Source: an uncultured virus (IMG/VR IMGVR_UViG_3300042466_000764) (lineage: Duplodnaviria > Heunggongvirae > Uroviricota > Caudoviricetes). Taken from it: 64,000 bases of DNA. Within the stretch, counting starts at the first letter, position 1. Each line of letters starts with the position of its first letter. Below the pieces are notes generated by a model, which did not search any database, was not told the origin of the DNA, and saw nothing but the letters and a program-made list of their open reading frames with translations. The stretch is from IMG/VR virus record IMGVR_UViG_3300042466_000764. The stretch is one strand, 5' to 3'. Below, piece after piece: positions 7,757-55,121 of this stretch. The translations under genes were made by a program, and so were the position numbers.

Positions 7757-7906
7757 AGACCAAACAGAGGTAGTGTGGAATGCTTTTAAAGTGTGTGAAG
7801 AATATTCATGTAAAGAAGAAGCAACACGAATATTTAATGATTATCCACGAGAATTAAACTTGTGTGATTTACACATGGATCAATTAAAAAGAAAGATGTT
7901 TATATC

Positions 7907-8629: not shown

Positions 8630-8671
8630 GTTTGAGCATATTAAATGCTCAAAGAAAAAGGAGAAATAAAA

Positions 8672-8914: not shown

Positions 8915-8926
8915 ACAGGTGTAATT

Positions 8927-8959
8927 AGAGACAGGTGGTTTTAATTAACTGCCTGTCTC
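8927..8959. terminator. bidirectional hairpin between convergent genes
   Basis: GAGACAGGTGGTT-N6-AACTGCCTGTCTC inverted repeat. Confidence 0.65.
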
Positions 8960-9595: not shown

Positions 9596-9635
9596 TAAAC
9601 AAGTATATCACTAAGAGGGTGGTACAATAGTAGAC

Positions 9636-10202
9636 ATGAAAGGTGAGCCAATGGATTCAGAAGATGTAAACAAACAAGCACCATGTTGGGATGGGTATGT
9701 ACAACGTGGTATGAAACCAGGAGCAAATGGTAAACCAGTTCCTAATTGTGTACCTGCAGCAAAAGCAGATGATCTTTGGGAAGATGATGACACAGTTGTT
9801 TATGAAACAGATAACTTATCAAAAGCAGAAGGTTACTCACCACCAGCAGGAGTAAGATCAGCAGCACGTAGAGCAATTAAATACAAAGAAAATGGTAAAG
9901 CAAAAGGTGCTGGTACATCAGTTGGTTGGACTCGTGCAGGTCAACTTGCTAGAGGAGAGTCAATATCTTTAAGCACAGTTAAACGTATGTACTCTTATTT
10001 TTCAAGACACGAAGTAGATAAAAAAGGTAAAGACTTTAATAATGCAACAGATCCTTCTAACGGAAAGATTATGTGGTTAGCATGGGGTGGAGATGCTGGT
10101 TTTGCATGGTCAAGAGGAATAGTTAATCGTGAAAAAGATAAAGCATTATTTGCTGATTTTGGAAAAGATTACACTAAATCAAATAGAATAATCTTGTCAT
10201 GA
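9636..10202 (+). CDS. conserved phage protein
   Basis: CWDGY..GMK...VPNCVP motif plus GT.VGW.RA.QLA...RM.SYFSRH...WGGDAG domain. Confidence 0.6.
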   Translation: MKGEPMDSEDVNKQAPCWDGYVQRGMKPGANGKPVPNCVPAAKADDLWEDDDTVVYETDNLSKAEGYSPPAGVRSAARRAIKYKENGKAKGAGTSVGWTRAGQLARGESISLSTVKRMYSYFSRHEVDKKGKDFNNATDPSNGKIMWLAWGGDAGFAWSRGIVNREKDKALFADFGKDYTKSNRIILS

Positions 10203-10441
10203 ACATATTTTATTTTTGGCATTCATTGGTTATTGGTTTATTAATGATATCCTCATTTTTTTGGGGCAGATCTTATCAGAAAGAAAAAATCAATGAGCAA
10301 TAACAGATTAAGAAAAAACAGAAAGAAAAAATACGCACACAATCAAATTCAAATAAAAGATGGTTGGATTGTTCGTGTCAGAAAAGATGGAACAATTAGA
10401 GAAAAGTTTTCAAGATACGTTGCTAACCACAAAAAAGAAAG

Positions 10442-10945
10442 TTAAACTATTTCAGTATTTCCATGAGTTAAAATTTGTCTCATTGTATTAAACACTTCTG
10501 ATTCTTGCAGAGCATTTTCAAAAAATTTTAAATCATTTAAAAATACAATGCCATGTCCTATTTCATACATTAAAGGTATATTATTATTTTTAGTATAATT
10601 TATAACATATGATAAATACTTAGCAGAATAGTCTTGACCCATAGCACTAAGAATTAAAAAATCTCTACCCTTAAAACTATATGAAGATACTATAATATTA
10701 GAATATTCTGGCTTCATCCATATTGGAACATCATCATACTTTAACCACATACATTTATATGTTTTACACGGATCGTTTGGTCTATCTTTATATATGCCAC
10801 ATTTTTTTTCAGTTAAATTTAAAAAATGACAAGGCTTTCCATTACCATATATGTGACCAAAAATATCTCCACCAACACTAGTTGTTCCATCACAACATTT
10901 TGTACACGTTCCACATTGTTTGGCCATTACCAACCACCACCACAA
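10442..10945 (-). CDS. YkgJ/FliB-like Cys-cluster protein
   Basis: CGTCTKCC...PC.FL...C.IY..RP..PC..Y.C. Confidence 0.75.
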   Translation of the reverse strand: MWWWLVMAKQCGTCTKCCDGTTSVGGDIFGHIYGNGKPCHFLNLTEKKCGIYKDRPNDPCKTYKCMWLKYDDVPIWMKPEYSNIIVSSYSFKGRDFLILSAMGQDYSAKYLSYVINYTKNNNIPLMYEIGHGIVFLNDLKFFENALQESEVFNTMRQILTHGNTEIV

Positions 10946-13660: not shown

Positions 13661-14377
13661 TTGGATCCCATTAAATTGGCTAATGCCAAATTAAATATAA
13701 CACAAAGTCGTAAAGGCAATAACTTTCAACACGAACAACCAGCACCAGGAATACACATATATAACGAGGTTTGGCCAGAAGGACTAGACTATATTAAAAA
13801 ACTTGATGAAGATGGCAGTTTTATTAGAGAAGATTATATTCATGATTCAGAAGGAAATCAGATCCCCAAAGAGGTTGGTAAAAAAGGTGTAAGTACTTGG
13901 ATTACCTTTGAAGAACCTGAAAAAGATTTAGAACTATGCAAGGTTTTTGAAGAAGTTATTGATTCATATTTGTGGCACTATGATCTAGACCCACAAAGTA
14001 GGGAATACTGGAGAATAAGTAAATACACTGAAGGTGATTATTTTGGTATGCATCCAGATGATTCATACGGAACACCAAGAACTGTTGCAATGGTATATTA
14101 TCCAAACGATGATTATGCTGGTGGAGAATTAGAATTTATAAACTTTGGAATAAAAATTAAACCAAAAGCAAGACAATTATTTATGTTTCCAGCATCATAC
14201 ATATATGAACATAAAATACATGACATAGGTTCAGGTAATCCAAGATATACAATAGTAGCATTTTTCTCTAACATAACCCAAAGAGAGTTAGATACAAGAT
14301 TAGAAAAAATACCTTTTCCATATAAAGCAAACTTGCAATACATAAAAGATCTTAACAAAGACTATCACACTAAATGA
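13661..14377 (+). CDS. 2OG-Fe(II) oxygenase
   Basis: HPDD...Y.NDDYAGGEL.F...FPASYIYEH...RY. Confidence 0.9.
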   Translation: MDPIKLANAKLNITQSRKGNNFQHEQPAPGIHIYNEVWPEGLDYIKKLDEDGSFIREDYIHDSEGNQIPKEVGKKGVSTWITFEEPEKDLELCKVFEEVIDSYLWHYDLDPQSREYWRISKYTEGDYFGMHPDDSYGTPRTVAMVYYPNDDYAGGELEFINFGIKIKPKARQLFMFPASYIYEHKIHDIGSGNPRYTIVAFFSNITQRELDTRLEKIPFPYKANLQYIKDLNKDYHTK

Positions 14378-14982
14378 ACTCTTTTGTAGATGTTTTAGGT
14401 AATGATATAAGTTTAATTAAAACTAAAGAAAACTTTATGGATGTTGACGACTATAACATTATGTTAAAGTTTTTAGATTGGGTATCAGCAGCACAACCAC
14501 AAGATGGTCAACATATTCAAGAAGAAATAGATAAAGTTATTACTCCAGAGATTATTGAAATACAAAATAAATACAATAAAAAAATAATTGAGACAGCAAC
14601 AGAACTATATGGTATGGAATTTGTTGATGATAATACCCATATGCTTGCTGCAACAATAGCAACCCCAGGAGCAATTACTCCTGTTCATACTGATATTATT
14701 GAAGGACTTGACAGGCAGAAGCCAAAAGAAGAAGAGTTACATGATTGGAAAAATGCTTGGGATGGATACTTGTCCTGTAATATATATATTAATGATGATT
14801 ATTCTGGTGGTCAAGTATATTTCCCTGAAAGAAATTATGAATTTAAACCAAAGGCCAACTCTTTAGTTATGTGGGCTGGTAACAAAAACTTTATTCATGG
14901 TGTTAAAGATCCAATAGATGGTAATAGATACAATGTTTATAGATCAATAAAGTTTAAAGATTTTGATAAGTATACTATCTAG
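14374..14982 (+). CDS. 2OG-Fe(II) oxygenase
   Basis: HTD...NDDYSGG..YF...HGV...RY; paralog of 17205..17843. Confidence 0.88.
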   Translation: MNSFVDVLGNDISLIKTKENFMDVDDYNIMLKFLDWVSAAQPQDGQHIQEEIDKVITPEIIEIQNKYNKKIIETATELYGMEFVDDNTHMLAATIATPGAITPVHTDIIEGLDRQKPKEEELHDWKNAWDGYLSCNIYINDDYSGGQVYFPERNYEFKPKANSLVMWAGNKNFIHGVKDPIDGNRYNVYRSIKFKDFDKYTI

Positions 14983-16877: not shown

Positions 16878-17210
16878 ATGCATAGAGGTCCAGCCCTTTT
16901 ATATTTGATTTACCACGAAAAATTCGGGGCATTTAAGGTAGGAATAAACGACATAGGTAATACTAGATACCCTACCCATAGATCAAATGGTTGGAAAATA
17001 GTCGAGTATTGGTATTTTGATAGCATAACGATAGCACGTAAGGTAGAAAGAATAGTCTTATCTAAGATGAAGAGTAAAACAAAAAGTGAAGGTTTTGTAA
17101 GTAAAGAGGATATGCCTCAAGGTGGCTATACTGAAACTTTTGATGCTGATAAAATAACATCAAGAGGGGTTAAGATTATTATTAATAGAGTTATTAAAAA
17201 TTTATTATAA
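16878..17210 (+). CDS. GIY-YIG/T5orf172-like protein
   Basis: LYLI...FKVGI...R...H...E..V...GYTETF; leaderless ATG 16878. Confidence 0.6.
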   Translation: MHRGPALLYLIYHEKFGAFKVGINDIGNTRYPTHRSNGWKIVEYWYFDSITIARKVERIVLSKMKSKTKSEGFVSKEDMPQGGYTETFDADKITSRGVKIIINRVIKNLL

Positions 17211-17843
17211 ATCTTTTTGCTTAGGATTATATTTATCATACTCTGCAAATTTCATAAAAATACCATACACATATCTGCTGGTTATTTTTGTTTTCTTAAT
17301 ACCATGAATAAAATATTTGTTGCCAGGCCACATAATTAGTGAGTTTGCTTTAGGTTTGATTGTTAGGTATTCTCTTTCAGGAAAATATATTTGCCCTCCA
17401 CTATAATCATCATTTAAGTATAGGTTGCATGCCAAATATCCATCCCAAGCATCTCTCCAGTTTAAATAGACTGGTTCTTTAAATCCAGGCTCCTGAAATC
17501 CAGGAGAATCTTCTATGATGTCCACATGTGCATCTGTAAAAGAGTTTACTTTATGAATATTTAATCCAAAGTTAAACGTTTCTTTTAAAAAGTCTTGTTT
17601 ATATACTTCTTTGGCAACATCAAATATTTTATTATTTAACTTTTCACCAAACTTTCTAAAATCACTTAACGAAGCATCATCTAAATGATTATTAGCGGCA
17701 ACATGTAATTGACTTCCACTAAATCTTGATTCTGCTTTTTTAGCAACTTCTATTAAATATTCAAGATCTTCTTTATCTAAAAAATCATATACATATTTTA
17801 TGTTCTCTATATCATCGCCTAAAATATCAATAAAACTAGACAT
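17205..17843 (-). CDS. 2OG-Fe(II) oxygenase
   Basis: HVD...AWDGYLACNLYLNDDYSGG...HGI...RY. Confidence 0.88.
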   Translation of the reverse strand: MSSFIDILGDDIENIKYVYDFLDKEDLEYLIEVAKKAESRFSGSQLHVAANNHLDDASLSDFRKFGEKLNNKIFDVAKEVYKQDFLKETFNFGLNIHKVNSFTDAHVDIIEDSPGFQEPGFKEPVYLNWRDAWDGYLACNLYLNDDYSGGQIYFPEREYLTIKPKANSLIMWPGNKYFIHGIKKTKITSRYVYGIFMKFAEYDKYNPKQKDL

Positions 17844-38384: not shown

Positions 38385-38759
38385 ATGTGTACAACCGTAG
38401 AAAAATTTGGATCTGACCCCGCCACCCTTAAATGGCAAATAATTCGTGGAGACTCTTCTCTGATAAGAATTGACTTTTTACAAAACGATGAAACAACACA
38501 TTACGACACAACAGGATGGACTTACCTTGCCTCCGCATATGACCCTAAAACCGATATAATCGACCCTCTAACGGTCGTTTCAGGCTCAGGGTATGTTCAG
38601 GTAAAGGTAGACCCAAGTTTGAGTGCATTTTGGGGCTCTACGTACCGTTCTAGCGTTGCAGAACTTATGTTTGATTTAGAAGTAACTATCGACGACACAG
38701 TTTGGACACCAGTTATAGGAACCATCACGGTTCTTGGTGACATTAGTGGTACCTTATAA
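38385..38759 (+). CDS. virion protein (BppU/Ig-like), paralog 1
   Basis: RGD...FDLEV...WT...GTITV..D shared with 39625 and 43950. Confidence 0.55.
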   Translation: MCTTVEKFGSDPATLKWQIIRGDSSLIRIDFLQNDETTHYDTTGWTYLASAYDPKTDIIDPLTVVSGSGYVQVKVDPSLSAFWGSTYRSSVAELMFDLEVTIDDTVWTPVIGTITVLGDISGTL

Positions 38760-38869: not shown

Positions 38870-39598
38870 ATGGCCATTTCACGCAGCATGGGTTTTCCTA
38901 TACAAGAAAAACAAAAAATTAATGCAGTTGATCAGGAAGCCCCACAACTACAATTTTTACCAGTCCCAGGACCTCAAGGTGTACCAGGACCTCAAGGTGC
39001 AATGGGTCCACAAGGAATACAAGGTCCTAAAGGTGACAAAGGTGACAAAGGTGATGCTGGAGCAGATGGAAAAAATGGCAAGAATGGTATAAACGGTAAA
39101 AATGGAGAAAGTTATTTTCCAGTTTACAAACAACAACCAGGTTGGGCCAGTTACGAAGATACATCTTCTAAAATTTTTAGCATAGACCCATCTAGAGGTG
39201 AAAACGGATGGCACGATTTATACATTGACAAAAAAGGCATATCAAAAAACCAATCATTCCTACCATTAAACTGCAACACCCTTTACAACGAACAATCCAG
39301 AGTACTAACATTTAGAAGTTTAGAAATAGGATCAACTGTTAGACTTACCTATAACTTTTCACTTGAAACCTTTGTTAACAATACTGAATTTTGGTTTGCT
39401 ACCGTATACCCTGAAATTGACAAATCAGTTCTAACAATGGTTGGATCATTTAAATACCAAGGAATCTTTGACCTAACAGTTGACCAAACAATACACATAG
39501 AAAATAAAGAAATGTGGTTTAACTTCTGCAGACCATATGCAAAATCAGATCATTTAACAAACCTAATACTAAAAAAAATATATGTATCAGTTTCATAG
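38870..39598 (+). CDS. collagen-repeat virion protein
   Basis: GPQGVPGPQGAMGPQGIQGPKGDKGDKGDAGADGKNGKNG. Confidence 0.85.
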   Translation: MAISRSMGFPIQEKQKINAVDQEAPQLQFLPVPGPQGVPGPQGAMGPQGIQGPKGDKGDKGDAGADGKNGKNGINGKNGESYFPVYKQQPGWASYEDTSSKIFSIDPSRGENGWHDLYIDKKGISKNQSFLPLNCNTLYNEQSRVLTFRSLEIGSTVRLTYNFSLETFVNNTEFWFATVYPEIDKSVLTMVGSFKYQGIFDLTVDQTIHIENKEMWFNFCRPYAKSDHLTNLILKKIYVSVS

Positions 39599-39624: not shown

Positions 39625-39978
39625 ATGGCATTTCCAGGCACATACAACATTAATTATTACAAGGGTGACCGTTATGAATTTGTTATATACCCTAAAGACG
39701 CTGCAGGCGACGTTTTTGATTTAGATGGATATAATTCTGCTTTTTCTATAGCATCTTCAACTGGACCAGATCCAGAGGAAGGCCCATTTGCAGCAAGTGC
39801 GGTCATTAACAACGCTAAAGATAGAGTTACTTGTGTAATATTACCAGAAGTGGGTAAAGATAATCTAGATGCAGGAACCATATACTATTACGATGTTCAA
39901 ATATCAAGTGGAACAGATGTAGTTTACACACTTCTAAAAGGAACAATCACTGTAACAGCAGATGTAACTGGTGCATAA
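39625..39978 (+). CDS. virion protein (BppU/Ig-like), paralog 2
   Basis: KGD...YYYDVQI...TLLKGTITV..DVT. Confidence 0.55.
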   Translation: MAFPGTYNINYYKGDRYEFVIYPKDAAGDVFDLDGYNSAFSIASSTGPDPEEGPFAASAVINNAKDRVTCVILPEVGKDNLDAGTIYYYDVQISSGTDVVYTLLKGTITVTADVTGA

Positions 39979-41124: not shown

Positions 41125-41775
41125 ATGCCATCATTAAATACTACTGGTAAAACAGCATACGTATATGATCAAGGTACAGATACTTTTTATGCAATTGGTG
41201 CAAACACAAACACTGCCGCAAATTATGTTTGGTCTGGAACACAAGAATTTCAAAACAATGTTACATTTTCAGATACTAATGCAGTAATTACTGCTAAGGC
41301 TGGAGTAAATAACTTTTTAAATCCTGCAGCAAGAGATGCAGCATTAACCTCACCAGTAAGAGGAACAGTTTGTTTTGTTAGACAAACCTCTGGTGCCGTA
41401 GCAATTAATGATTTACAATTTTACAACGGAACAAATTGGATATCTTACGGTGGTTTAGTTACCTTTAATAAACAGGCTGGTAGCGGAACACAAAATTATG
41501 ATTTAACATTAAATGATATTGGTCAAAGTATAACTTTTGATTCCACAGGAGCATGGACAGTAACTATTCCACCCAATTCAAGTATTGCCTTTCCAATAGG
41601 ATCAGAAATAGATGTTTTTAGAATGAACACTGGATCTGTTACATTTGTTGCAGGTGCAGGAGTTACTTTAAATAGTAAAAATACAAATAAAGCAATTGCA
41701 GCAAGGTACTCAGGTGCATCCTTGTTTAAGTTTGATACAAATACCTGGCTTCTAGTCGGCGACTTGATCGCATAG
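41125..41775 (+). CDS. short tail fibre with conserved C-terminal domain
   Basis: TIPPNSSIAFPIGS.I...G.VT...GVTL...LFK..TNTW...GDL, shared with 47897..49729. Confidence 0.7.
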   Translation: MPSLNTTGKTAYVYDQGTDTFYAIGANTNTAANYVWSGTQEFQNNVTFSDTNAVITAKAGVNNFLNPAARDAALTSPVRGTVCFVRQTSGAVAINDLQFYNGTNWISYGGLVTFNKQAGSGTQNYDLTLNDIGQSITFDSTGAWTVTIPPNSSIAFPIGSEIDVFRMNTGSVTFVAGAGVTLNSKNTNKAIAARYSGASLFKFDTNTWLLVGDLIA

Positions 41776-41784
41776 GGGTTTGCT

Positions 41785-42681
41785 ATGGCATTATTTGGAA
41801 AACTAGTTAAATACGTTGTAGCAAAAGGAATGAAACTACTTCCTAATTTTATTGGAAGAACAAGTGCACAAGCCCAAACAGATGTTGTATCAGAAGGATT
41901 TACTTTAGGAAACGTAATTACTTCAGTTTCTGGAGAACCAACAGAACTTGCAAATGATGGAAAAGTTGTTGGACAAACTCCTGCAGTAACAACACCAGCA
42001 GACTATGAAACCCCAGTTGATTTAACAGTTAGACAATTTACATTTACACCATTTGGGGTGTTTGGATTTTCTCCATTTCAAGTATTTGGATTTTCTCCTT
42101 TTAACGTATTTGGGTTTTCCCCCTTTAACGTATTTGGTTTTTCACCATTTAGAGTATTTGGATTTTCACCAACCTATTTTGGTGGTCTTTGTATAGATCA
42201 AGAAACACCAGTTTTAACTAAAGAGGGATATGCATTAGCCAAAGACATAGTTGTTGGAGATATTTTAATAACTAAAACATTTAAAGATATTCCAATAACA
42301 AATCATGATGGTTTAAGACTATGGTCATCTGAAAATAATAAAGAATACACTACAGTAGAGTCTGTGGTAAATAATATAAAAGAAAGTGAAGTATCTGATA
42401 CAGTTTTAGTTAATGGAGACAAGTATAAGAGATTTTCTACACAAGAAGATATTCTTGTTGTTAGAGAAAATAAACTAATGTTTGTTATTTCTTCACAATT
42501 AAAATCTGGAGATTTAATAGTAAAAAATCCAGAAGAGTCATTGATTGATGGACCTTTATATCAAGTTCGCTCTATAGAAATAGTCAAAGAAGATAGAAAA
42601 GTTTATGATTTTATGAGAGAACCATTTGGCTTGATTGTAGCAGATTCTTTACTTGTATATAATGCTTATCCAGTAGATTAA
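41785..42681 (+). CDS. PASTA-like domain + (VFGFSPFx)5 repeats + Hint/intein-like domain
   Basis: LPNFIG...AQ.....GF..G...G.VV.Q.P (PASTA-like); CIDQETPVLT...VYD...LLVYN (Hint). Confidence 0.75.
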   Translation: MALFGKLVKYVVAKGMKLLPNFIGRTSAQAQTDVVSEGFTLGNVITSVSGEPTELANDGKVVGQTPAVTTPADYETPVDLTVRQFTFTPFGVFGFSPFQVFGFSPFNVFGFSPFNVFGFSPFRVFGFSPTYFGGLCIDQETPVLTKEGYALAKDIVVGDILITKTFKDIPITNHDGLRLWSSENNKEYTTVESVVNNIKESEVSDTVLVNGDKYKRFSTQEDILVVRENKLMFVISSQLKSGDLIVKNPEESLIDGPLYQVRSIEIVKEDRKVYDFMREPFGLIVADSLLVYNAYPVD

Positions 42682-43253
42682 TCTTTAGGAAACTGATACA
42701 TAAATTCTCTAGTTTTTGAAGTTATGCCTTTCCAAGGTCCCCAATTATTTCCACCATCACTCATAATATAAGCAACTTGACAGTTAATTGATGGGTTTAA
42801 AAGTTGACTAGTGTAGTCTAAGTTATATTTTTCTTTTCTATCAGCATTAAGGTCACCAATCATATTTATTTGAAATAGTCCGTATGATTTGTCTCCAGTG
42901 CTTCTGTTGCCGTTAAAAGCCAAGGCGTTGCCCATTGATTCTTTTTTAGCAATAGCCCAAGCCTCTACCAGGTGTTTATTTTCAAAACCACAAGCAGACA
43001 GCAAAGTTTTTAGTTCAATATCAGTAAGTTGTCCTTTATCCTGATATTCAGCAAGAATTCTTACATTGTCTCTAGATGGTTTATCTAGATGATCTGGCCT
43101 AGAAAGCAAAAAAACCGCCTCAGCGGTAAATGTTGCATATTTATCGTTTTTCAGGTTAGTTTCAACACCTTGAGCATTAGAAATATTCAAGAATACTGAA
43201 GACAATCCAAGACTTGCGAGCAATCCTATTAAAAATTTTTTATCTTTTTTCAT
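42678..43253 (-). CDS. lysozyme-like lytic transglycosylase with signal peptide
   Basis: AIAKKES.G...SYGLFQIN...L.NP..N...A......W.PW. Confidence 0.85.
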   Translation of the reverse strand: MKKDKKFLIGLLASLGLSSVFLNISNAQGVETNLKNDKYATFTAEAVFLLSRPDHLDKPSRDNVRILAEYQDKGQLTDIELKTLLSACGFENKHLVEAWAIAKKESMGNALAFNGNRSTGDKSYGLFQINMIGDLNADRKEKYNLDYTSQLLNPSINCQVAYIMSDGGNNWGPWKGITSKTREFMYQFPKD

Positions 43254-43391
43254 AGTTCTCTCCTAAGAAAACATGACACCCTTGGTAGGTGTCATATATC
43301 AAGTATAACATCTATTTGCCAGCAAGTCAAATCAAAAATGTCATATTAGTAAGATAATACAAAAAATTATTTAAAATGATATAATATTTGT

Positions 43392-43919
43392 ATGGCAACA
43401 GGTCAATCAAGCATATATAACTTACCATACCCACAAGTTGATGATAGCGTAAACGTACATGGAGATATTCAATCTTTAGCAACTTCACTAGATAATACAC
43501 TCGCTGGACTTGGCTTATCTTACATGAAATTAGATGTAATTAATACATCTGGAGCATCAATTGCAGCAGGATCTCCTGTATTTATTAATGGTCATAATTC
43601 AGGACAAGATTTAACAACAGTAGGAAAAGCAATTCCTACAACAACATCACCAATATTAGGATTATTAAAATCTACAACAGCAAATAATGCACAAGGAATA
43701 TGTGTAGTCTCTGGAGTATTACCAGATGTTAATACATCTGAATTTGTTGCAGGTGATATTTTATACGTAAAGACTGGTGGAGGATTAACAAACGTTAGAC
43801 CAGTAGGTGGTGCAGGTGCTGTAGCAGTTTGTGCTTACGCAGATGCATCTAATGGAGTTCTTGTAGTTACCGCCAAAGGTAACGGTACTTGGGGAGCATT
43901 AAAGAACGGTCTTTCATAA
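43392..43919 (+). CDS. virion/tail protein
   Basis: LPYP...D..NVHGDIQSLA; beta-rich composition. Confidence 0.55.
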   Translation: MATGQSSIYNLPYPQVDDSVNVHGDIQSLATSLDNTLAGLGLSYMKLDVINTSGASIAAGSPVFINGHNSGQDLTTVGKAIPTTTSPILGLLKSTTANNAQGICVVSGVLPDVNTSEFVAGDILYVKTGGGLTNVRPVGGAGAVAVCAYADASNGVLVVTAKGNGTWGALKNGLS

Positions 43920-43949
43920 TTATTTATCCAAACATGATATAATTACAAT

Positions 43950-44357
43950 ATGGCCATTCTCAGAAACTCATCTCAAGATTTATACAACGTAGGTGCTAAA
44001 CCCCCAACCGTTAAATGGACAGTAGTTCGTGGTGACACCTCAGCATTTAAAGTTTATGTGACAGACGATGAACAGTCCCCTTTAGTTATAGCAGATTGGA
44101 ACATTGCTATGAAAATTAAAAGACCAAACCTTGCTAAAGATCTTGGAGTTATTACAGATAATGCAAATACAGTTATGCTTTTGACTCCAGCAGCAGATGC
44201 AGATGATTTGGCTGGAGAGTTTACAGTTAAACTTGCAGCAGAAGAATCACACAATCTTCAAACAGGAGATATTTTTGATATCGAGTTATCTACATCAGAA
44301 ATTGTTTGGACAGTTGCACAAGGCAGTCTAATTATCCTTGAAGATGTAACTGACTAA
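43950..44357 (+). CDS. virion protein (BppU/Ig-like), paralog 3
   Basis: RGDT...FDIEL...WTV.QG....EDVT. Confidence 0.55.
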   Translation: MAILRNSSQDLYNVGAKPPTVKWTVVRGDTSAFKVYVTDDEQSPLVIADWNIAMKIKRPNLAKDLGVITDNANTVMLLTPAADADDLAGEFTVKLAAEESHNLQTGDIFDIELSTSEIVWTVAQGSLIILEDVTD

Positions 44358-44581
44358 TGGCAACAGCAATTATTGTTGATGACAATAAACAAAAATTAAG
44401 ACGTATTGAAACCTCAGACTATTACCAAACCAAAATATCCTACAAACCTAGCACGGTAGAAATAAATTACACCTTACCTTTTAGAATAAGATTTACAACA
44501 ATAACAGTAGAAGGGTATGGTCCAGGTAATGTGCCCCCAATTCCTTTACAGGTTATTGGCTATAGCAACTATATACTGTAG
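44357..44581 (+). CDS. hypothetical protein
   Basis: Coupled ORF. Confidence 0.6.
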   Translation: MATAIIVDDNKQKLRRIETSDYYQTKISYKPSTVEINYTLPFRIRFTTITVEGYGPGNVPPIPLQVIGYSNYIL

Positions 44582-44590
44582 AATAGACAT

Positions 44591-45322
44591 ATGGCTAAAA
44601 AAGAAAAACCTAGCATATTTATAGCAACCCCAATGTACGGTGGGGTTTGTCATGGATACTTTATGAAAAGTATTATGGGACTAGTAATGAAACTAACCTA
44701 CAAAGGATACAAAGTAACCTTTAACGACTTGTACAACGAATCTTTAATTAACAGAGCCAGAAACACCCTTACAGAACTATTCTTAAGATCTGATGCTGAC
44801 TACCTATTGTTTATTGATGGTGACGAAGGTTTTAACGCTGATGGTGTTATAGATATGATTGATACAGATTTAGATATTATTGGGGCTGCCGTGCCAATGA
44901 AAGCAATTAACTGGGCTAACGTAGAAAAAGCAGCAGAATTAAAAAAACCTGATTTAAAAAGGTTTGGATCTTATGTAAACATAAACTTTGTTGATAGACA
45001 AGACTTGCATAAGGTAGCAGATAATCCTAAAAAACCATTAGAGGTAAAAAACATAGGAACTGGTTTGCTGTTAATTAAACGTAATGTTTTTGAAACAATG
45101 AAAGAGCATGTTGGAAAATATAAAAGTGATCAACTAGATTTGGGTGGTATTAAAAAAGGTGAATACATTTATGATTTTTGGAAAACACAGGTAGACCCAG
45201 AAGAAGAAAGACTTTTGTCAGAAGACTACTACTTCTGTACACTATGGCGTAAACTTGGTGGTTCTGTGTATGTAGCACCACATGTTAAAGTAGTGCACGT
45301 AGGAACCTACATATTCGTTTAA
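44591..45322 (+). CDS. glycosyltransferase-like protein (GT-A)
   Basis: IATPMYGG...ESLI.RARN...LFIDGD...GTG.LLIKR.VF...LSEDY.FC..WR..GG...HVG. Confidence 0.8.
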   Translation: MAKKEKPSIFIATPMYGGVCHGYFMKSIMGLVMKLTYKGYKVTFNDLYNESLINRARNTLTELFLRSDADYLLFIDGDEGFNADGVIDMIDTDLDIIGAAVPMKAINWANVEKAAELKKPDLKRFGSYVNINFVDRQDLHKVADNPKKPLEVKNIGTGLLLIKRNVFETMKEHVGKYKSDQLDLGGIKKGEYIYDFWKTQVDPEEERLLSEDYYFCTLWRKLGGSVYVAPHVKVVHVGTYIFV

Positions 45323-45360
45323 TTTATAAAAAGTTATAAAAATAATGTTATAATTTAGGC

Positions 45361-45807
45361 ATGGCACAACAATCAATTTCAACAGTAAAATCACGTTATG
45401 AGACTGGCGATAGGCCATCTCAGCAAGACTATGAAGATTTAATTGACACTACCGCGTCCCAAGCAACACGCCTTGGCACCTTCGGTAATAACGACAACAC
45501 TATTTCTGAAATTGAAAACACTACAATATTAGATAGTCATAATGCAACAGAATGGAGAATGGTTAAGTATATCATTTCCATCTCTAAAACAACAGCAGGA
45601 GATAACCTCTTCTACGCAACAGAATTGACCATATTAAATGACACGGAAGATAGTTCCGTTTCCGAATATGGGACAATAGACAACGATGGGAATATTGGAA
45701 CCATAAGCGTCTCAAGGGCTGGAAATACAGTGGCTTTAACAATCACTCCAGACCCAGTAATAAAGCCAGTCACTGTGCGTTACGCACGCATGGGACTTAA
45801 GGCATAA
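45361..45807 (+). CDS. virion protein
   Basis: K..YETGDRP.Q.DY.DLID; C-terminal domain similar to that of 45819. Confidence 0.6.
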   Translation: MAQQSISTVKSRYETGDRPSQQDYEDLIDTTASQATRLGTFGNNDNTISEIENTTILDSHNATEWRMVKYIISISKTTAGDNLFYATELTILNDTEDSSVSEYGTIDNDGNIGTISVSRAGNTVALTITPDPVIKPVTVRYARMGLKA

Positions 45808-45818
45808 GGAGATAAAAA

Positions 45819-47351
45819 ATGGCAACAGTAACAAAAAATTTCAAGATTAAACATGGTTTAGTCGTTGAAGGAACAACAGGTACAATTAACAACTTTGACA
45901 TCTTGACAAAAAGTACAGATGATCAAAACTACATTATAGACCTGGTTGGTGGAGACGCTTCATCAAACGCAGTAGCAAACACACTAGTACTTCGTGATGC
46001 AAATGCAAACTTTCTTGCAAATACAATCACAGCAGACTTAGTTGGAGATGTAACTGGTCAAGTATCAGACATTTCTAATCATGATTCTGATGATGTAGCA
46101 GAAGGTACAACAAACCTTTACTTTACAAACCAAAGAGCAACAGATGCAACTGCAGCATCCTATGATGCTATAGGCTCAGCAGCAAATGCTTATTCAAATG
46201 CAACTGCTTACACAGACCTAGAAGTAGGTAATGCAATTGCTGACTTAGAAGACTATGCAGATTTTGCAGCAGGAAATGCTTTAGCAAATGCAAACTCATA
46301 CACTGACAACGCAATTTCTAATGCAGTCTCTGACTTAGAAGAATACACTGACTTTGCAGTAGGCAATGCAGTGGCTGACTTAGAAGATTATGCAGACTTT
46401 GCAGTAGGTAATGCAATTGCTGATTTAACAAACAATGCACCAGCGTTATTAGATACACTTAACGAAATCGCAGAAGCAATTGGTGACGATGCAAACTTTG
46501 TTGGAACAATAACCAACTTAGTTGCAGAAAAACAAAATGCTTTGATTGCAGGAACTGACATTGAGATTACAGGAAACACAATTAACTTTACTGGAAGTTA
46601 TGATGTTTCAGGATCAGCAGATACTGCTTATTCAAATGCAGTTACTTATATTGATCTAGAAATAGGAAATGCATATGCAGACCTAGAAGACTATGCAGAT
46701 TTTGCAGCAGGAAATGCTTTAGCAAATGCAAATTCTTACACAGACAATGCAATTAATCTTTTGTCAACAACTGATATCGAAGAAGGAACAAACGAATACT
46801 TCACAGATACAAGGGCTAAAGAGTCAGCAGCAAGTTTGTTAACAATGGCAACTCTAACAAATATCTCAATCACAGGTAACTCATCTGGATTGGTAATTAC
46901 AGCAGAAAATGGTGTAGGAGATTCTAACACAGATGCTTTGGTTGAAGGTTCAACAAACCTTTACTTCACAGATCAACGTGCAGTAGATGCTCTTGAAGCA
47001 GTAATACCTAATTTCACTGAAATTGATATTAACACAGTTGCTAGACAAGTTGCAGCAACAGTAAATGCTCCAACAGCAAGCACAGTTACAGCAATTGACT
47101 GGGCATTAGCAGAATATCGCTCAGCCGAATTCTTGGTAAAAGTTGCTTACGGTGCACACACAGAAGTTTCAAAAGTTATCTTAACTCTTGATACTTCAAA
47201 CAACATCGCAATCACAGAATACGCAATTGTAGGAACAAACGGATCCGCATCCACAATTTCTGCAGACGTAAACGGAACAGATGTAAGACTAAGAGTAGCA
47301 ACAGCCAATAACAACTCAGATGTAACAGTTGTTGGTACATTGTTAGTCTAG
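45819..47351 (+). CDS. tail fibre protein with helical repeats
   Basis: EG.TNLYFT..RA repeats; DLEDYADFAAGNA repeats; AP..LDTL.EIA.AI.DD. Confidence 0.8.
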   Translation: MATVTKNFKIKHGLVVEGTTGTINNFDILTKSTDDQNYIIDLVGGDASSNAVANTLVLRDANANFLANTITADLVGDVTGQVSDISNHDSDDVAEGTTNLYFTNQRATDATAASYDAIGSAANAYSNATAYTDLEVGNAIADLEDYADFAAGNALANANSYTDNAISNAVSDLEEYTDFAVGNAVADLEDYADFAVGNAIADLTNNAPALLDTLNEIAEAIGDDANFVGTITNLVAEKQNALIAGTDIEITGNTINFTGSYDVSGSADTAYSNAVTYIDLEIGNAYADLEDYADFAAGNALANANSYTDNAINLLSTTDIEEGTNEYFTDTRAKESAASLLTMATLTNISITGNSSGLVITAENGVGDSNTDALVEGSTNLYFTDQRAVDALEAVIPNFTEIDINTVARQVAATVNAPTASTVTAIDWALAEYRSAEFLVKVAYGAHTEVSKVILTLDTSNNIAITEYAIVGTNGSASTISADVNGTDVRLRVATANNNSDVTVVGTLLV

Positions 47352-47373
47352 TAAAAAAATTAGGGGGCAGTAA

Positions 47374-47826
47374 ATGACTACAAGTCTAAAAGATTTTAAA
47401 GTCAAGAATGGATTAGTCGTAACTAACGGCGGTTCATTTGGAAACGCGGTAGCAGTAGGAGAACCTACATTAGGAACTCACGCTACTACTAAAGATTACG
47501 TAGATTCTGTAACTGGTACACCAGTATCAAATACTGCCCCTCTTTCCCCAGACAATGGGGATATGTGGTTTGATACCACAGTAGAAAGATTAAAAGTTTA
47601 TTATGAAACTGACTGGTTTACAATTGCAACAAGCAATGATGTACAAAATATTCCAGATCACATTCATGATACAGCAATTGATGGTAACGGAAGAATTGTT
47701 ACAGTATTCTGGGATGCTGAACAATATGATGATCCACAAATTTCTACATTAAGTGGTGGAACACCATTTTCAAATTCATGGGCAGCAGTATTTGATGGTG
47801 GAAATCCAGACAGTGAATTTAATTAA
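47374..47826 (+). CDS. tail-associated protein
   Basis: KDFKVKNGL N-terminus as in 45819; HATTKDYVD; P..GD.WFD. Confidence 0.65.
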   Translation: MTTSLKDFKVKNGLVVTNGGSFGNAVAVGEPTLGTHATTKDYVDSVTGTPVSNTAPLSPDNGDMWFDTTVERLKVYYETDWFTIATSNDVQNIPDHIHDTAIDGNGRIVTVFWDAEQYDDPQISTLSGGTPFSNSWAAVFDGGNPDSEFN

Positions 47827-47896
47827 AACATTTTAAAAAAAACTGTTATAATTAAAACAAAATCAAAAGTAGGTAAGACCTACACAGGGAGATACA

Positions 47897-49729
47897 ATGG
47901 CAACAAGGATGCTACAACGTAGAGGAACTGCTACACAGTGGGCTAACGCTAACCCTACTCTGGGTTCTGGAGAAATTGGTTTTGAAACCGACACAGGACA
48001 ATTTAAAATAGGTGACAACTCTACAGCATGGGATGATTTGCCATACTTTAAAAATATAGAAGATCTAGGCGGAAACCTAGACGATTACATTTTATTAGAA
48101 CAAAAAGGTGCAGCAAACGGTGTTGCCACATTAGATGGAAGCAATTTAATACCTACAGCACAGATACCTAGTGGTATTGCTAGAACTGCAGATTACGTTG
48201 CATTAACACAAAAAGGTGCAGCAAACGGTGTTGCTACACTTGACGGAAGCAACTTAATTCCTTTAACACAAATTTCAAACAGCATTGCTAGATCTTCAGA
48301 TGTAAGTAACTCAATTTCAAACGCAATTGCAACCCTTGTAGGAACAGCACCAGAAGCATTAAATACTTTACAAGAAATTGCTAATGCAATTAATGATGAT
48401 CAAACTTATTTCTTCACCGTTGCCAATAACATAAATAACGCTTTAGATGCTGCTAACGAATATACAGATAACAGCATAAGCAATTTATCAGCAGACGTTA
48501 CAGAACAAATAGAATTATTAGCAAACAATACTGCAAATAATCTTGCAAACGCAGTTCAATCTTTACAATATGAAATTGGAAATGCTCAATCAGCAGCAGA
48601 AGATTATGCAAATGGTTTAGTAGATCAAGAAATATTAGATAGAGATACAGCAATTGAAGCAGAATCGTTTATATTAGGAAACACAATAGCAAACGCAATT
48701 ACAGATTTAGAAGAATACACAGATAATGCAATTTCAGATCATAATCTAGAAACATTAAATGTGCACGGTATATCAAATACAGCAACACTAGTTACTCTCA
48801 CACAGTTAGAAAATCATGAATCTGATACATCAAACGTACACGGTATCACAAATACCTTGGCAGTAGTTCTTACAGATGATGCAAGACTTTCTGATGCAAG
48901 AACACCACTTGATAACTCTGTTACAAATAACTCTATATCAGGAACAATCAATCAAGATAAAATCACAAACCTTGTAACAACACTAGGAAATCTAGCATCC
49001 CTTTCAGGAGCAGCCTTTACTGGTAACGTTTCAACAACTGGTAATTTAACAGTAGACGGAGATTTCACTGTAAGTGGATCTAACGTTCTTGTATCTGCAA
49101 CACAAATTCAAATCGAAGATACTTTACTACAACTTGGTCACACAAATGCTAACAACGTAACAGATCTAGGTTTGGTGGTTTCTTATAATGATGGAACACA
49201 AAAACATGCTGGTATCGTCAAAGACGTTACAGATAGCAAATGGAAATTGTTTGATGGTGTTACATCAGAACCTGGAACAACAGTTAACTTTGGACAAGGT
49301 TCACTAGATGTCTTGGCACTTTTGACACTTGAGGCAAACTCAATCACTGCAACATCAGATATCACTGCAAACGGAATCGTATTTGCAGACGGTACACAAA
49401 GATTAGAAGGTGTACCTTCACGGACACCTATTGTTCAAAAAACAGAAAGTTATACTTTGTCAGCATTGGCTGAAAGAGACAACTTGATAGAAATGAACAA
49501 TGCTTATGCAACAACACTAACTATTCCTCTTAACTCAGCAGTAGCCTTCCCAGTTGGAACATCAATTGATATTCTTCAAACTGGTGTAGGTCAAGTAACA
49601 ATTGCAGGAGACGCAGGGGTAACAGTAGATGCTACACCAGGTCTTAAATTACGCACACGGTGGTCATCATGCACTCTGTTTAAGAGAGCAACTAACACCT
49701 GGGTCGTATACGGCGATTTAAGTGCCTAA
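47897..49729 (+). CDS. long tail fibre (Mtd/hyaluronidase-type N-terminus, conserved C-terminal domain)
   Basis: QRRGTA.QW...NP.L..GEIGFETDT..FKIGD; two KGAANGVATLD repeats; C-terminus shared with 41125. Confidence 0.85.
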   Translation: MATRMLQRRGTATQWANANPTLGSGEIGFETDTGQFKIGDNSTAWDDLPYFKNIEDLGGNLDDYILLEQKGAANGVATLDGSNLIPTAQIPSGIARTADYVALTQKGAANGVATLDGSNLIPLTQISNSIARSSDVSNSISNAIATLVGTAPEALNTLQEIANAINDDQTYFFTVANNINNALDAANEYTDNSISNLSADVTEQIELLANNTANNLANAVQSLQYEIGNAQSAAEDYANGLVDQEILDRDTAIEAESFILGNTIANAITDLEEYTDNAISDHNLETLNVHGISNTATLVTLTQLENHESDTSNVHGITNTLAVVLTDDARLSDARTPLDNSVTNNSISGTINQDKITNLVTTLGNLASLSGAAFTGNVSTTGNLTVDGDFTVSGSNVLVSATQIQIEDTLLQLGHTNANNVTDLGLVVSYNDGTQKHAGIVKDVTDSKWKLFDGVTSEPGTTVNFGQGSLDVLALLTLEANSITATSDITANGIVFADGTQRLEGVPSRTPIVQKTESYTLSALAERDNLIEMNNAYATTLTIPLNSAVAFPVGTSIDILQTGVGQVTIAGDAGVTVDATPGLKLRTRWSSCTLFKRATNTWVVYGDLSA

Positions 49730-49760
49730 CGGTTTGATATAATAAGACTAGGGAGAGAAC

Positions 49761-51008
49761 ATGGCAATAGGTAAAAGAGCAGGTAAAAAGTCACAACAGG
49801 CTAATGACTTTTTAGAACCACAACAACCAACAATTACTTCAGCAACTAACGTTGGTACAGGTCGGGCTTTTAATAATGGTGCAGTTGATGTAGCATTTAC
49901 ACTACCAGCAAATTCTCCAGCAGCAACAGGTTTTACAGTGACTTCAAGTCCTGGATCTCTTACAGCAACAGGTGCAACTTCTCCGTTGCGGGTTACAGGA
50001 TTATCATCAGATACAAGTTATACTTTTACAGTTGTTGCAACTAATGCATCAGGTAACTCGATTGCTTCAGCAGCATCAAGTTCAGTAACTGTTACAACAG
50101 TACCTGCAACACCTGCAGCACCAAGTGCATCATCACCAAACGCTAATCAAGATGTAATTTCATGGAGTGCACCAGCAAACGGTGGATCAGCAATTACAAA
50201 TTATTACTGGGAATCAACCGACGGTAAAAATGGAAATACTGGAACAGGAACCAGTGCATCACTAGGACAAGAAGCAGGAACAGCACAACAGTACAAAGTT
50301 CGGGCAACTAATGCTAACGGAAACTCAGAATTTTCTGCACTATCAAATTCAGTAACAACTACATTTTCTTTCGTACCTTTTGGTGTGTTTGGTTTCTCAC
50401 CTTTCTCAGTATTTGGTTTCTCACCTTTTAACGTGTTTGGTTTCTCCCCATTTAGAGTGTTTGGTTTCTCACCATTTAGAGTTTTTGGTTTCTCACCAAC
50501 ATACTTCTGTATAGATGAAGATGCACCAGTTCTTACAAAAACTGGAAATAAAAAAGCAAAAGATATTAAAGTTGGAGACACCTTAATAACAAAAACATTT
50601 GATCAATTACCAGTAGGACATTTTGCAGAAGTTATTATGTGGATGGGTATGGGCGGACTTACTAATTATAGAGATATTGAGTCAACAGTCACAGAAATAG
50701 TTCCAAGTGTGGTAGAAGAAACAGTTATTATTAATAATAATCCAGACATGAGATTTTCAACTATGGAAGATATTCTTACAGTTAAAAAAAATGTGTATAA
50801 GTTTATTCCTTCAAGAGAAATTAAACCTGGAGATACCTTAGTAACAAAAGACTCTTTAATGGTAGTAGAAAATGTTGAAACAGTTAATGAAACTAGAACA
50901 GTATACATGTTTTCTAGAGATCCACTTGGCTTAGTTGTAGCAGGAAACCTGTTATGCTATAGTTCTTATGCTCTTACACAAGACTATTTAGGTTTACCTA
51001 CAACCTAA
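49761..51008 (+). CDS. 2x FN3 + (VFGFSPFx)5 repeats + Hint/intein-like domain
   Basis: FN3 motifs (VTGL....YTF.V.A.N..G; W.APANGGSAIT.Y); CIDEDAPVLT...VY.F...GNLLCY. Confidence 0.8.
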   Translation: MAIGKRAGKKSQQANDFLEPQQPTITSATNVGTGRAFNNGAVDVAFTLPANSPAATGFTVTSSPGSLTATGATSPLRVTGLSSDTSYTFTVVATNASGNSIASAASSSVTVTTVPATPAAPSASSPNANQDVISWSAPANGGSAITNYYWESTDGKNGNTGTGTSASLGQEAGTAQQYKVRATNANGNSEFSALSNSVTTTFSFVPFGVFGFSPFSVFGFSPFNVFGFSPFRVFGFSPFRVFGFSPTYFCIDEDAPVLTKTGNKKAKDIKVGDTLITKTFDQLPVGHFAEVIMWMGMGGLTNYRDIESTVTEIVPSVVEETVIINNNPDMRFSTMEDILTVKKNVYKFIPSREIKPGDTLVTKDSLMVVENVETVNETRTVYMFSRDPLGLVVAGNLLCYSSYALTQDYLGLPTT

Positions 51009-51050: not shown

Positions 51051-51716
51051 ATGCAACAAGGTCCACCACCAGAACTACGTGGTATTCAGCAATCAACAAA
51101 ACCACATAAGTTTTTTGAAAGACATTTAAATAATGATTTAGATTTACTTGCAAATGAATTAATTGATAGATATCAAATGATTGAAAAGGTAGAATTAGAT
51201 GGCATTACGCCAGTAAACTCTAAAGACTTTTGGCAAGAGTCAGGCAGTGTTTCTACTGTAAAGTGGAGAGAATATAATGTATTTCAATTTCATATTGAAG
51301 GTATCTATGAGTTATATAAAAATATTCAAGATATGACTAAAGAGGCTTGCGAATATTACGAAATAGATTTTGAGAAAAAACAGTTTATGCTTCAAGGATG
51401 GTTTAATATTAATTATACCAAAAAAGGAAAGTTAAATTGGCATGATCACGGACACACAGGTGCCCCAGATAACTTTCATGGTTACTACTGTGTAAAAGCA
51501 GAACCTTCAACAACTTACTACAGAGTGTTTGGTAAAGATATTGAAAATAAAAATATAGATAACCGTGCTATATTTTCAGAAATGGGTCATCCACACGCTC
51601 AAGGCGATTGGGATTGGGAAGGTCCAAGAATAACCGTTGCATACGACGTTATGACACTAAAAGATTTAAAACATGTAGGTAAAGAACACGAACAACACTG
51701 GATTCCATTGATATGA
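51051..51716 (+). CDS. 2OG-Fe(II) oxygenase-like
   Basis: QGWFN...WHDH...FHGYY.V.AEPS.TYY...HPH...PRIT.AYD. Confidence 0.7.
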   Translation: MQQGPPPELRGIQQSTKPHKFFERHLNNDLDLLANELIDRYQMIEKVELDGITPVNSKDFWQESGSVSTVKWREYNVFQFHIEGIYELYKNIQDMTKEACEYYEIDFEKKQFMLQGWFNINYTKKGKLNWHDHGHTGAPDNFHGYYCVKAEPSTTYYRVFGKDIENKNIDNRAIFSEMGHPHAQGDWDWEGPRITVAYDVMTLKDLKHVGKEHEQHWIPLI

Positions 51717-52342
51717 TGAATCAAAAACCACAACATAAGTTTTTTGAAAAATATTTGCAAAACGATCTACCAGGATTAACAAAATATCTTTTAAGAGTTG
51801 AAAAAGATTTATTTGATGGGGTATATCCCAAAGTAACAAAAGAATTTGCAGCCACTGTTCCTGGAGTTCACCATTTAGGCACAAGGTTTAATGTTTTTCA
51901 ATGCTATAATCCAGCAATACATAATATTTTTTCTGCAATACGTGAATTAACAATAGAAGCATGTGATTATTATGGTATTGATTACAAAAAACAACACTAC
52001 ATGGTTCAGGGATGGTTTAATACAGATGCAATGGCAGAGCCACCGCTTAATGAGGATACACATTATCACGATCATTTGGGTGGTACTGGTGCTCCTAATT
52101 TTCATGGATATTATTCTATAGATGCAGAACCATCAGTTACATACTATAAAATTGGTGGACATGATGCAACACCAATTGAAAACGTTAATAAAAACAATAG
52201 AGTGATCTTGTCTGAAACTGGACACCCACATGGTATTGGTGCTTGGCCTTTTGATAAACCAAGAATTACTCTTGCCTATGACGTTTCTCCTTTTATGTAT
52301 ATGAGTGGTGACGAACTTCAACACTGGGTTCCGCTACCGTGA
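51713..52342 (+). CDS. 2OG-Fe(II) oxygenase-like, tandem paralog
   Basis: Same motifs as 51051. Confidence 0.7.
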   Translation: MMNQKPQHKFFEKYLQNDLPGLTKYLLRVEKDLFDGVYPKVTKEFAATVPGVHHLGTRFNVFQCYNPAIHNIFSAIRELTIEACDYYGIDYKKQHYMVQGWFNTDAMAEPPLNEDTHYHDHLGGTGAPNFHGYYSIDAEPSVTYYKIGGHDATPIENVNKNNRVILSETGHPHGIGAWPFDKPRITLAYDVSPFMYMSGDELQHWVPLP

Positions 52343-54590: not shown

Positions 54591-55121
54591 ATGGAAGATT
54601 TAAAGTCTCAAATTAAGTACATTAAAGGATTCATGGATCCTCAAGAAGCAGGTTTGGTAGCAGATTATGCAAAAAAACATTCTGAACTATTTTCTAACTA
54701 TGGTAACGAAGAACAAGAGTTTACCGTTCACACCTATCATGAAATAGAAGGTTTGGATAGCGACTTACTGGATACAATTCAAGAAACTGCGTTAATGGTT
54801 TATTCTTTTGTTTTAAATAACTACCAATCTAAGTTTGATCACTTTATTGATGAAAAAACTCATATAGCAAAATTTGTTGAAGGAAAAGGTATGCACGAGC
54901 ATTTTGATGCTTCAAGACCAAATGATATAGCAACTTTAATTTATTTAAACAATGACTATGAAGGAGGAGACATTTACTTTCCAAAATATGAAATGTCTTT
55001 TAAGCCAGAGCCTGGAGATTTGTTATGTTTTCCAGATAATCCAGATTTTGTTCATGGTGTTAAGCCAATAATTAAGGGAACAAGGTTTACATTACCTCGT
55101 TGGTTTACACGTATTGTGTGA
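54591..55121 (+). CDS. 2OG-Fe(II) oxygenase
   Basis: HFD...YLNNDYEGG.IYF...HGV..I.KG.RF. Confidence 0.9.
   Translation: MEDLKSQIKYIKGFMDPQEAGLVADYAKKHSELFSNYGNEEQEFTVHTYHEIEGLDSDLLDTIQETALMVYSFVLNNYQSKFDHFIDEKTHIAKFVEGKGMHEHFDASRPNDIATLIYLNNDYEGGDIYFPKYEMSFKPEPGDLLCFPDNPDFVHGVKPIIKGTRFTLPRWFTRIV

Follow-up and report, generated by a model that had tools for sequence, protein, structure and literature searches.

What would a Hint domain, a module used by inteins, Hedgehog processors, BIL domains and pre-toxin releasers, be doing at the end of a protein encoded next to a phage tail fibre, and why should one phage carry such a gene pair twice? The question is raised by a 64,000-nucleotide (nt) stretch of DNA (the window) from an uncultured Caudoviricetes virus (IMG/VR record IMGVR_UViG_3300042466_000764). 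An earlier interpretation made from the letters without database searches (hereafter the sequence-only reading) had described the same pair, a fibre gene and a partner gene, at two places, and all four open reading frames (ORFs) are indeed present on the + strand: the short fibre protein A1 (41125..41775, 216 amino acids (aa)) followed by its partner B1 (41785..42681, 298 aa), and the long fibre protein A2 (47897..49729, 610 aa) followed by B2 (49761..51008, 415 aa). Our best explanation, to which we give a rough probability of 0.45, is a duplicated receptor-binding cassette composed of a fibre and its partner, in which the Hint domain would be a self-removing cap that leaves a repeat array as the C-terminal end. 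The intergenic gaps are short (9 nt between A1 and B1, which share a frame, and 31 nt between A2 and B2, with GGAGA 5 nt before the ATG of B2), and a terminator scan listed no terminator-like site inside either gap. Within the window, profiles of the Hint domain and of the shared fibre end matched these two pairs only.

Comparison of the two copies agreed with the earlier description of otherwise different fibres that have a common end domain. Similarity between A1 and A2 is restricted to their C-terminal ends (39/96 identical residues, 41%, E 4e-17 by BLASTP), which lie at 41485..41772 in A1 (aa ~121-216, terminating exactly at the stop codon) and at 49442..49726 in A2 (aa ~516-610; match to the hidden Markov model (HMM) of this domain over aa 518-610, E 3.1e-38). 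The PHROG tail and structural family matches of A1, for which ~19 homologues of ~203-217 aa were aligned, are confined to its C-terminal part. A2 has an Mtd_N-type N-terminus (Pfam Mtd_N, aa 8-40, E 5.9e-12), and an internal 108-nt duplication was observed in it at 48100-48301 (Tandem Repeats Finder). The partners were likewise found to have differing heads, followed by a common array and C-terminal domain: B1 and B2 are alike in the latter two (114/212 identical, 54%, E 2e-71), and their N-terminal parts are unalignable. The head of B1 (41839..42030, aa 19-82) is PASTA-like (Pfam PF03793, E 5.2e-5); the match is marginal (23.6 bits vs a gathering cut-off of 23.2), and Pfam found PASTA in 11 of 51 family members, with a best E of 2e-15. 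The head of B2 (49761..50363) comprises a conserved N-terminal peptide and two FN3 domains (Pfam fn3, two stretches, E 1.2e-8). Among 8000 candidates scored, 1693 homologues of B2 were obtained at E ≤ 1e-5, named only 'hypothetical protein' or 'Fibronectin type III'.

The aromatic octapeptide arrays read FTFTPFG, four copies of VFGFSPFx and VFGFSPTYFGGL in B1 (42037..42189), and FSFVPFG, four copies of VFGFSPFx and VFGFSPTYF in B2 (50364..50507); Tandem Repeats Finder reported a 24-nt period for both, with 5.4 copies at 42042-42171 and 5.1 copies at 50375-50497, respectively. Over 49 aligned codons, the two arrays share 21 identical codons and differ by 23 synonymous changes and 5 residue changes, and the ratio of nonsynonymous to synonymous divergence (dN/dS) between the B1 array and that of its orthologue at locus L012 is 0.03 at dS 0.70. 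This synonymous excess shows that VFGFSPFx has been kept by selection at the protein level, and not by recent DNA duplication or gene conversion.

The C-terminal domain of the partners (163-166 aa) is located at 42190..42678 in B1 (aa 136-298; Cys1, S83-x-x-E86, end ...VYN-AYPVD) and at 50508..51005 in B2 (aa 250-415; Cys1, S-x-x-E, end ...CYS-SYALTQDYLGLPTT), the latter aligning to B1 and matching the Hint HMM with E 2e-49. Its identity as a Hint domain was originally a guess. Pfam and PHROGs gave no Hint family on the window copies, including when the domain was searched alone; phmmer of the domain against PDB placed two inteins at the top, weakly (E 0.085 and 0.23); and in a search of PDB with full-length B1, the repeats drew low-complexity chance matches to a viral spike protein and nothing else was obtained. 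The guess was nevertheless upheld by structure and profile searches. An AlphaFold2 (AF2) model of the domain, built on 51 family members, had a predicted local distance difference test (pLDDT) score of 94.5, and Foldseek returned 49 hits for it at E ≤ 1e-3, all of which, among the matches listed, were Hedgehog-C, BIL domains or inteins. Structural comparison by VIA aligned the model with Tetrahymena BIL2 (6y75; Z 16.6, root-mean-square deviation (rmsd) 2.2, 136 residues aligned), the BIL domain of C. thermocellum (2lwy; Z 16.5, rmsd 1.8, 129 aligned) and Hedgehog-C (1at0; Z 15.4), with residue 1 of the model on residue 1 of the chain; 83 chains scored Z ≥ 8. At the sequence level, the family profile matched the C. 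thermocellum BIL domain (E 4.7e-7) and archaeal inteins (E 1.2e-6 for Pho RadA, and 2e-6), and Pfam Intein_splicing was matched by 28 of the 51 family members. A HMMER search with the 163-aa domain gave 93 cluster representatives at E ≤ 1e-3, with a C-terminal match position in all among the matches listed. Judged from the predicted structure, the partner C-terminal domain is thus a genuine Hint fold.

The AF2 model of A1 was confident only from ~residue 121 (pLDDT >84 in each 10-residue block from aa 121), that is, over the shared end. This part was aligned by VIA with the C-terminal knob of the Pa223 capsid spike gp52 (aa 198-293; Z 13.8, rmsd 1.9, 96 aligned) and, at Z 7.8-10, with the T4 gp10-like domains (KP1 baseplate, CBA120 TSP4 and T4 gp10 itself, aa 48-149, Z 8.2) and the T4 gp9 middle domain. 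On the basis of this model, the shared fibre end is a TNF-like/gp10-like beta-sandwich knob of the trimeric-knob fold, and it may form a trimer by analogy: Pa223 gp52 is described as a homotrimer with a distal TNF-fold knob (10.1101/2025.06.11.659172). The knobs of Pa223 gp52, CBA120 TSP4 and the KP1 baseplate fold as that of A1 at 14-23% identity, and none of them has been reported with a repeat/Hint partner. K202, W208 and G212-D213-L214 (A1 numbering) are among the almost invariant residues of the knob. All 92 knob hits in the Hint loci terminate within 3 residues of the stop codon and none is internal. The same domain also ends 'minor tail proteins' of cultured phages (268 records: 223 from Gordonia, 15 from Ruegeria, 8 from Brevundimonas and others), and in Gordonia phage Baddon the gene after the knob gene encodes no repeat partner. 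Hence the 'tip' domain of the sequence-only reading is linked to repeat-bearing partners, but it is a general phage fibre knob that occurs partner-free in Gordonia phages.

Gene order was surveyed from both sides in related loci, which had been gathered with B1 alone and with narrower sub-alignments. On the Hint side, 84 distinct Hint proteins were collected at E ≤ 1e-10, 68 of them with at least 600 base pairs (bp) upstream. Fifty-five of these 68 partners, or 35 of 41 clusters at 70% identity, lie directly after a knob-ending ORF, with gaps of -31 to 34 nt; among the 13 exceptions (L026/27, L028-30, L035, L051, L093, L095, L109, L118, L124 and L126), the knob gene is one ORF further upstream of the Hint gene in L109 and L118. 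In the Hint loci, 88 of the 92 knob-ending ORFs directly precede a Hint gene. On the knob side, the best 80 of at least 594 matches were used, 74 of which had at least 1200 bp downstream. The next ORF was on the same strand in all 74 cases, and in 71 it carried a Phe/Pro-rich array or a Hint domain, the remaining three being short Pro-rich, Cys-bearing ORFs 225-255 nt downstream. However, the Hint domain itself was present in only 25/74. Thus, the expected succession of tip domain and repeat-Hint gene held when followed from the Hint side, and failed for most partners when followed from the knob side. Taken together, these counts support a non-random link between the knob end and a repeat-bearing partner.

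What takes the place of the Hint domain could be seen in 46 Hint-less partners with strong Phe/Pro arrays: 34 have a tail of 12-43 aa with at least 4 Cys, 11 finish no more than 12 residues after the array, and the remaining one has an acidic tail of 21 aa. In several Hint-less partners (L131, L140, L146, L156 and others), 4-12 Cys were observed within 12-43 residues right after very long FFPP-type arrays. Seventeen Hint partners fell below the composition threshold for an array, not every one of which was inspected. In two fused proteins, P0029 (916 aa) and P0081 (745 aa), the knob is internal (aa 136-226 and 136-232, respectively) and is followed on the same chain by repeat arrays and a Hint end. 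The Phe/Pro arrays of P0081 start ~10 residues past the knob; in P0029, a long linker and Cys-containing regions come after the knob, and the arrays directly precede the Hint domain. Finally, the parts of the partners have diverged unequally. Between B1 and its L012 orthologue, dS is 0.07 in the head and 0.63-0.70 in the repeats and Hint domain, and relative to the partner at L015, identity is 91% in the head but only 39% in the Hint domain. Recombination has therefore exchanged heads and end modules.

Catalytic positions were compared in 89 distinct ORFs from the fetched loci and, as a second set, in the 93 library representatives. Cys1 is present in 63/63 locus ORFs that have a residue at position 1 and in 53/53 library representatives aligned there, the other 40 having nothing aligned at this position. 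In the family profile alignment, S83 corresponds to the block-B Thr and position 86 to the block-B His (TPSH of the Pho RadA intein). The former position is Ser in 56 and Thr in 29 locus ORFs (n=85). The latter is His in 43, Glu in 25 and Gln in 18 (n=86), with comparable variety among the library representatives (H 26, E 33, Q 30, G 1). The penultimate residue of the locus ORFs is His in 75, Tyr in 11 and Asn in 3 (n=89), the last residue is Asn in 83/89, and a terminal HN is found in 63/87 library representatives. The catalytic set is C / S-x-x-E / Y-N in B1 and C / S-x-x-E / Y-S in B2. In the S-x-x-E group to which they belong (15 sequences, mean identity 44%), 16 of 161 columns are invariant, including Cys1, S83 and E86, and the Hint dN/dS is 0.24-0.29 against three orthologues. 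The S-x-x-E/YN-YS arrangement of the window therefore looks, from these alignments, like a maintained variant site rather than decay, and it might be active without the His. Because the window copies have neither the block-B His nor the terminal His-Asn, self-cleavage is proposed here only as plausible. Thus, of the modular, self-processing system suggested by the sequence-only reading, the modular two-gene cassette stands, whereas self-processing has to be reconciled with two canonical catalytic features that the window copies do not have.

Our explanation of the locus is built on the architecture, both folds, the conserved adjacency, the fusions and the purifying selection on repeats and Hint domain; from these we infer that the partner associates with its fibre in the virion and that its Hint domain cleaves. 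The fibre of each copy ends in a TNF-like/gp10-like beta-sandwich knob, and the co-transcribed partner consists of a swappable binding head (PASTA or two FN3 domains), then a repeat stalk rich in Phe and Pro and, at the C-terminus, the Hint domain. As a virion fibre accessory at the knob of its own fibre, the partner would add a further binding head or provide an alternative one. Cleavage would begin with an N-S acyl shift, in which Cys1 attacks the peptide bond before it; once the thioester had been hydrolysed, the Hint domain would be set free and the repeat array would form the free C-terminus.

Several observations weigh against this explanation. First, B1 and B2 depart from the canonical block-B Thr-x-x-His, Ser being retained and Glu replacing His, and they end in YN and YS instead of a penultimate His and terminal Asn; the block-B His is used by inteins, Hedgehog and BIL2, and the BIL2 report (PMC8616854) gives it as the proton exchanger of the first step. 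Second, the Hint domain is absent from 49 of the 74 knob-side partners, and is therefore a dispensable, swappable cap and not the core of the cassette. Third, the loci come from related phages, so that the pairing counts are not independent events, and as the best 80 of at least 594 matches were retained, the knob-side sample is close to the knob of A2. Finally, a contact between partner and knob is suggested by gene order and the fusions only. A complex prediction with three A1 knobs and one B1 gave scores of 0.02, 0.34 and 0.00, which, being without controls, speak neither for nor against binding.

Known systems resemble the partners in part. An A-type BIL domain (C. thermocellum 2lwy) has, like this family, a Hint fold, an N-terminal Cys, a His-Asn end in most members and no nucleophile behind it. 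Such domains occur in variable, non-conserved proteins and are expected to cleave rather than splice, according to a review (PMC7765530), a context that fits partners with variable heads and mosaic recombination. Unlike A-type BIL domains, the partner Hint domain is viral, always terminal, preceded by a Phe/Pro array and tied to a fibre-knob gene, and its window copies are without His-Asn and block-B His. BIL2 of Tetrahymena BUBL (6y75/6tmm) is the best structural match. Its N-terminal flank is transferred to a lysine without ATP, which yields a Lys isopeptide (PMC8616854). BIL2 has ubiquitin-like flanks and H69; in the window copies, the residue at this position is Glu, and the short tails contain no lysine. 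Hedgehog/Hog (1at0) shares with the partners an extracellular head followed by a C-terminal Hint domain that cleaves at its first Cys (partner cleavage being proposed), but the partners stop 7-14 residues past the Hint domain and have no sterol-recognition region, no lipid transfer is implied, and the kingdom is different. The Peptidase_S74 chaperone domains of tailspikes and fibres are C-terminal and remove themselves after doing their job. That job may be likened to the role proposed for the Hint domain, although fold and chemistry are unrelated, and a Peptidase_S74 reading of B1 and B2 was ruled out by the absence of a Pfam match. A canonical intein was also rejected. The residues after the Hint domain number only 0-28 in the family (often a single Lys), 7 in B1 and ~14 in B2, and hence there is no C-extein; none with a +1 Cys, Ser or Thr inside a conserved host protein was found, no host protein resumes after the Hint domain, and the terminal His-Asn is missing. 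The gp37/gp38 parallel drawn by the sequence-only reading proved to be positional only: gp38-type adhesins have Gly-rich motifs, the repeats of B1 and B2 are Phe/Pro-rich, and neither protein matched a Pfam or PHROG family of such adhesins or of chaperones, so that this reading was set aside as well.

A C-terminal Hint domain on a fibre-like protein is also found in Phage NCTB (LT598654), whose BN7874_136, annotated 'putative phage tail protein, contains intein domain', was the only deposited phage record that a search with a canonical family member retrieved (26% identity, E 2e-6). This protein has a collagen-like body (G-X-Y) and a Gly run before Cys1, no Phe/Pro array, and an upstream protein with no evident GDLxA knob end (by eye only). 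A term search of the publications naming Phage NCTB found no tail-protein intein or Hint domain, inteins being mentioned only in other phages' genes or in terminases. Adjoining the Hint-ended tail protein (locus L207) are a free-standing 153-aa 'intein domain protein' that ends in ...VHNKVD (5480-5941) and a 'large intein domain protein' (7092-10475); this phage has several Hint-bearing genes in its tail region.

Among other explanations, the one that survives best is that the window Hint domain no longer cleaves and is retained as the folded C-terminal end of a partner that stays whole, where it would act as a cap, a knob or a surface for binding. The change of the block-B His to Glu and of the terminal His-Asn to YN (B1) or YS (B2) would fit a loss of activity, as would the drift of the last two positions in the S-x-x-E group (YN 4, NN 3, YH 3, YG 2, HN 2, YS 1), and other phages place a Cys-rich mini-tail, which is incapable of self-cleavage, in the same position. 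However, the invariance of Cys1, S83 and E86 is hard to square with a dead site, and Glu or Gln at the His position also occurs alongside an intact Cys1 and HN (TxxE/HN 8, SxxQ/HN 17), which points to a stable variant and not to decay. We regard a non-cleaving Hint domain as rather unlikely.

A different proposal is that the Hint domain is a ligase: a second molecule, for example the knob through one of its lysines or a component of the host envelope, would provide the nucleophile that resolves the Cys1 thioester and would thereby become covalently joined to the repeat tail, as happens with cholesterol in Hedgehog and with a lysine in Tetrahymena BIL2. In favour of such a role are BIL2, which forms a Lys isopeptide (PMC8616854) and is among the nearest structures, an almost invariant Lys in the knob (K202 of A1), the strict pairing of the genes and the existence of fusions. 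The ligation to a partner that the sequence-only reading had envisaged nevertheless gained no support. Moreover, Hint-less partners occupy the same gene position in 49/74 cases, so that covalent joining cannot be the general rule, and the fused proteins already have knob and repeats on a single chain. Overall, a ligase appears quite improbable. As a bolder version, which we consider a long shot, the Hint domain could be a single-use, ATP-free virion ligase that staples the Phe/Pro tail to the knob (for example, at Lys202) or, on contact, to a nucleophile of the host envelope; the Cys-rich tails in sister phages would be an alternative lock, and the repeats might be substrates of the 2OG-Fe(II) oxygenases whose genes are clustered downstream of the cassettes.

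A non-structural role for the B proteins, as chaperones of fibre assembly or as transient caps absent from the virion (compare Tfa and the 'chaperone caps' of Alteromonas phages), seems improbable: their genes lie directly downstream of a fibre gene, as those of tail-fibre chaperones do (PMC10579305), but the FN3/PASTA heads and long repeat stalks are adhesin-like, the fusions put repeats and Hint domain on the fibre itself, and no Pfam or PHROG chaperone family matches B1 or B2.

With regard to its setting, the window belongs to the large genome of an uncultured phage, with portal, head protease and major capsid protein at 59-63 kb, and also encodes a class II-type ribonucleotide reductase and many 2-oxoglutarate (2OG)-Fe(II) oxygenase genes; its GC content is 28-41%. 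No match of the region, B1 or B2 to deposited phages was obtained by megablast and tblastn. Both partner ORFs occur letter-identical (the B1 Hint domain at 100% identity) on one contig of a 2.6-Mb, 280-contig prokaryote genome bin (G001:C276; loci L001 and L002). The two cassettes lie in a series of fibre-like genes at 38-51 kb, which includes a collagen-repeat fibre protein (38870-39598; Pfam, E 1.4e-9) and a 510-aa fibre with 45-nt tandem repeats (45819-47351; Tandem Repeats Finder). Two small phrog_1084 paralogues (39625-39978 and 43950-44357, +) are scattered among these genes, and the ORF at 38385-38759 is similar to them by eye. Amid the fibre block, the opposite strand encodes a 191-aa protein at 42678-43253 (-), whose ORF shares 4 nt with the end of B1; its N-terminus resembles a signal peptide, and it has a lysozyme-like domain of the SLT_3/SLT type (E 2.1e-14). 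The 243-aa ORF at 44591-45322 (+; phrog_1574) has a weak, below cut-off match to Anp1 (mannosyltransferase; E 1.1e-4) and may, judging from this match, be a glycosyltransferase. Stop-codon readthrough from A1 into B1 (same frame, one TAG and three codons, 41773-41787) would give a product resembling the P0029 and P0081 fusions; we gave it little weight because the second pair is in different frames and the gaps of relatives are mixed.

Directly after B2 are two paralogous ORFs (51051-51716 and 51713-52342, +) with no Pfam or PHROG match, which by eye have His-rich motifs resembling small 2OG-Fe(II) oxygenases. They were rejected as dedicated helpers, since, among 80 distinct Hint partners, only 3 have relatives in the 2 kb downstream. 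In loci L003-L206, 137 genes of the 2OG-FeII_Oxy_3 type were found within 0-4 kb downstream of partners and none upstream, and they number 1.42 per 10 kb in locus DNA vs 0.78 per 10 kb in the window, where such genes lie at 8945-9595, 13661-14377, 14374-14982, 17205-17843 and 54591-55121. Shared gene order in related phages could account for this clustering, as could a connection with the Pro-rich repeats.

A literature search found no paper on Hint-capped fibre partners, the results being terminase inteins or polymorphic toxins; the layout, which is real and common in uncultured phages, appears not to have been described. If our explanation is true, a large viral family in which a Hint domain caps a fibre-associated adhesin would represent a new biological use of Hint chemistry, and a small Hint domain that is naturally without the canonical His would be of interest for engineering self-cleaving protein tags. 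It would also mean that phages have an unstudied mode of fibre building, in which a knob-ending fibre is combined with a partner whose heads and end modules can be swapped, and the host range of these uncultured phages is probably set by such cassettes.

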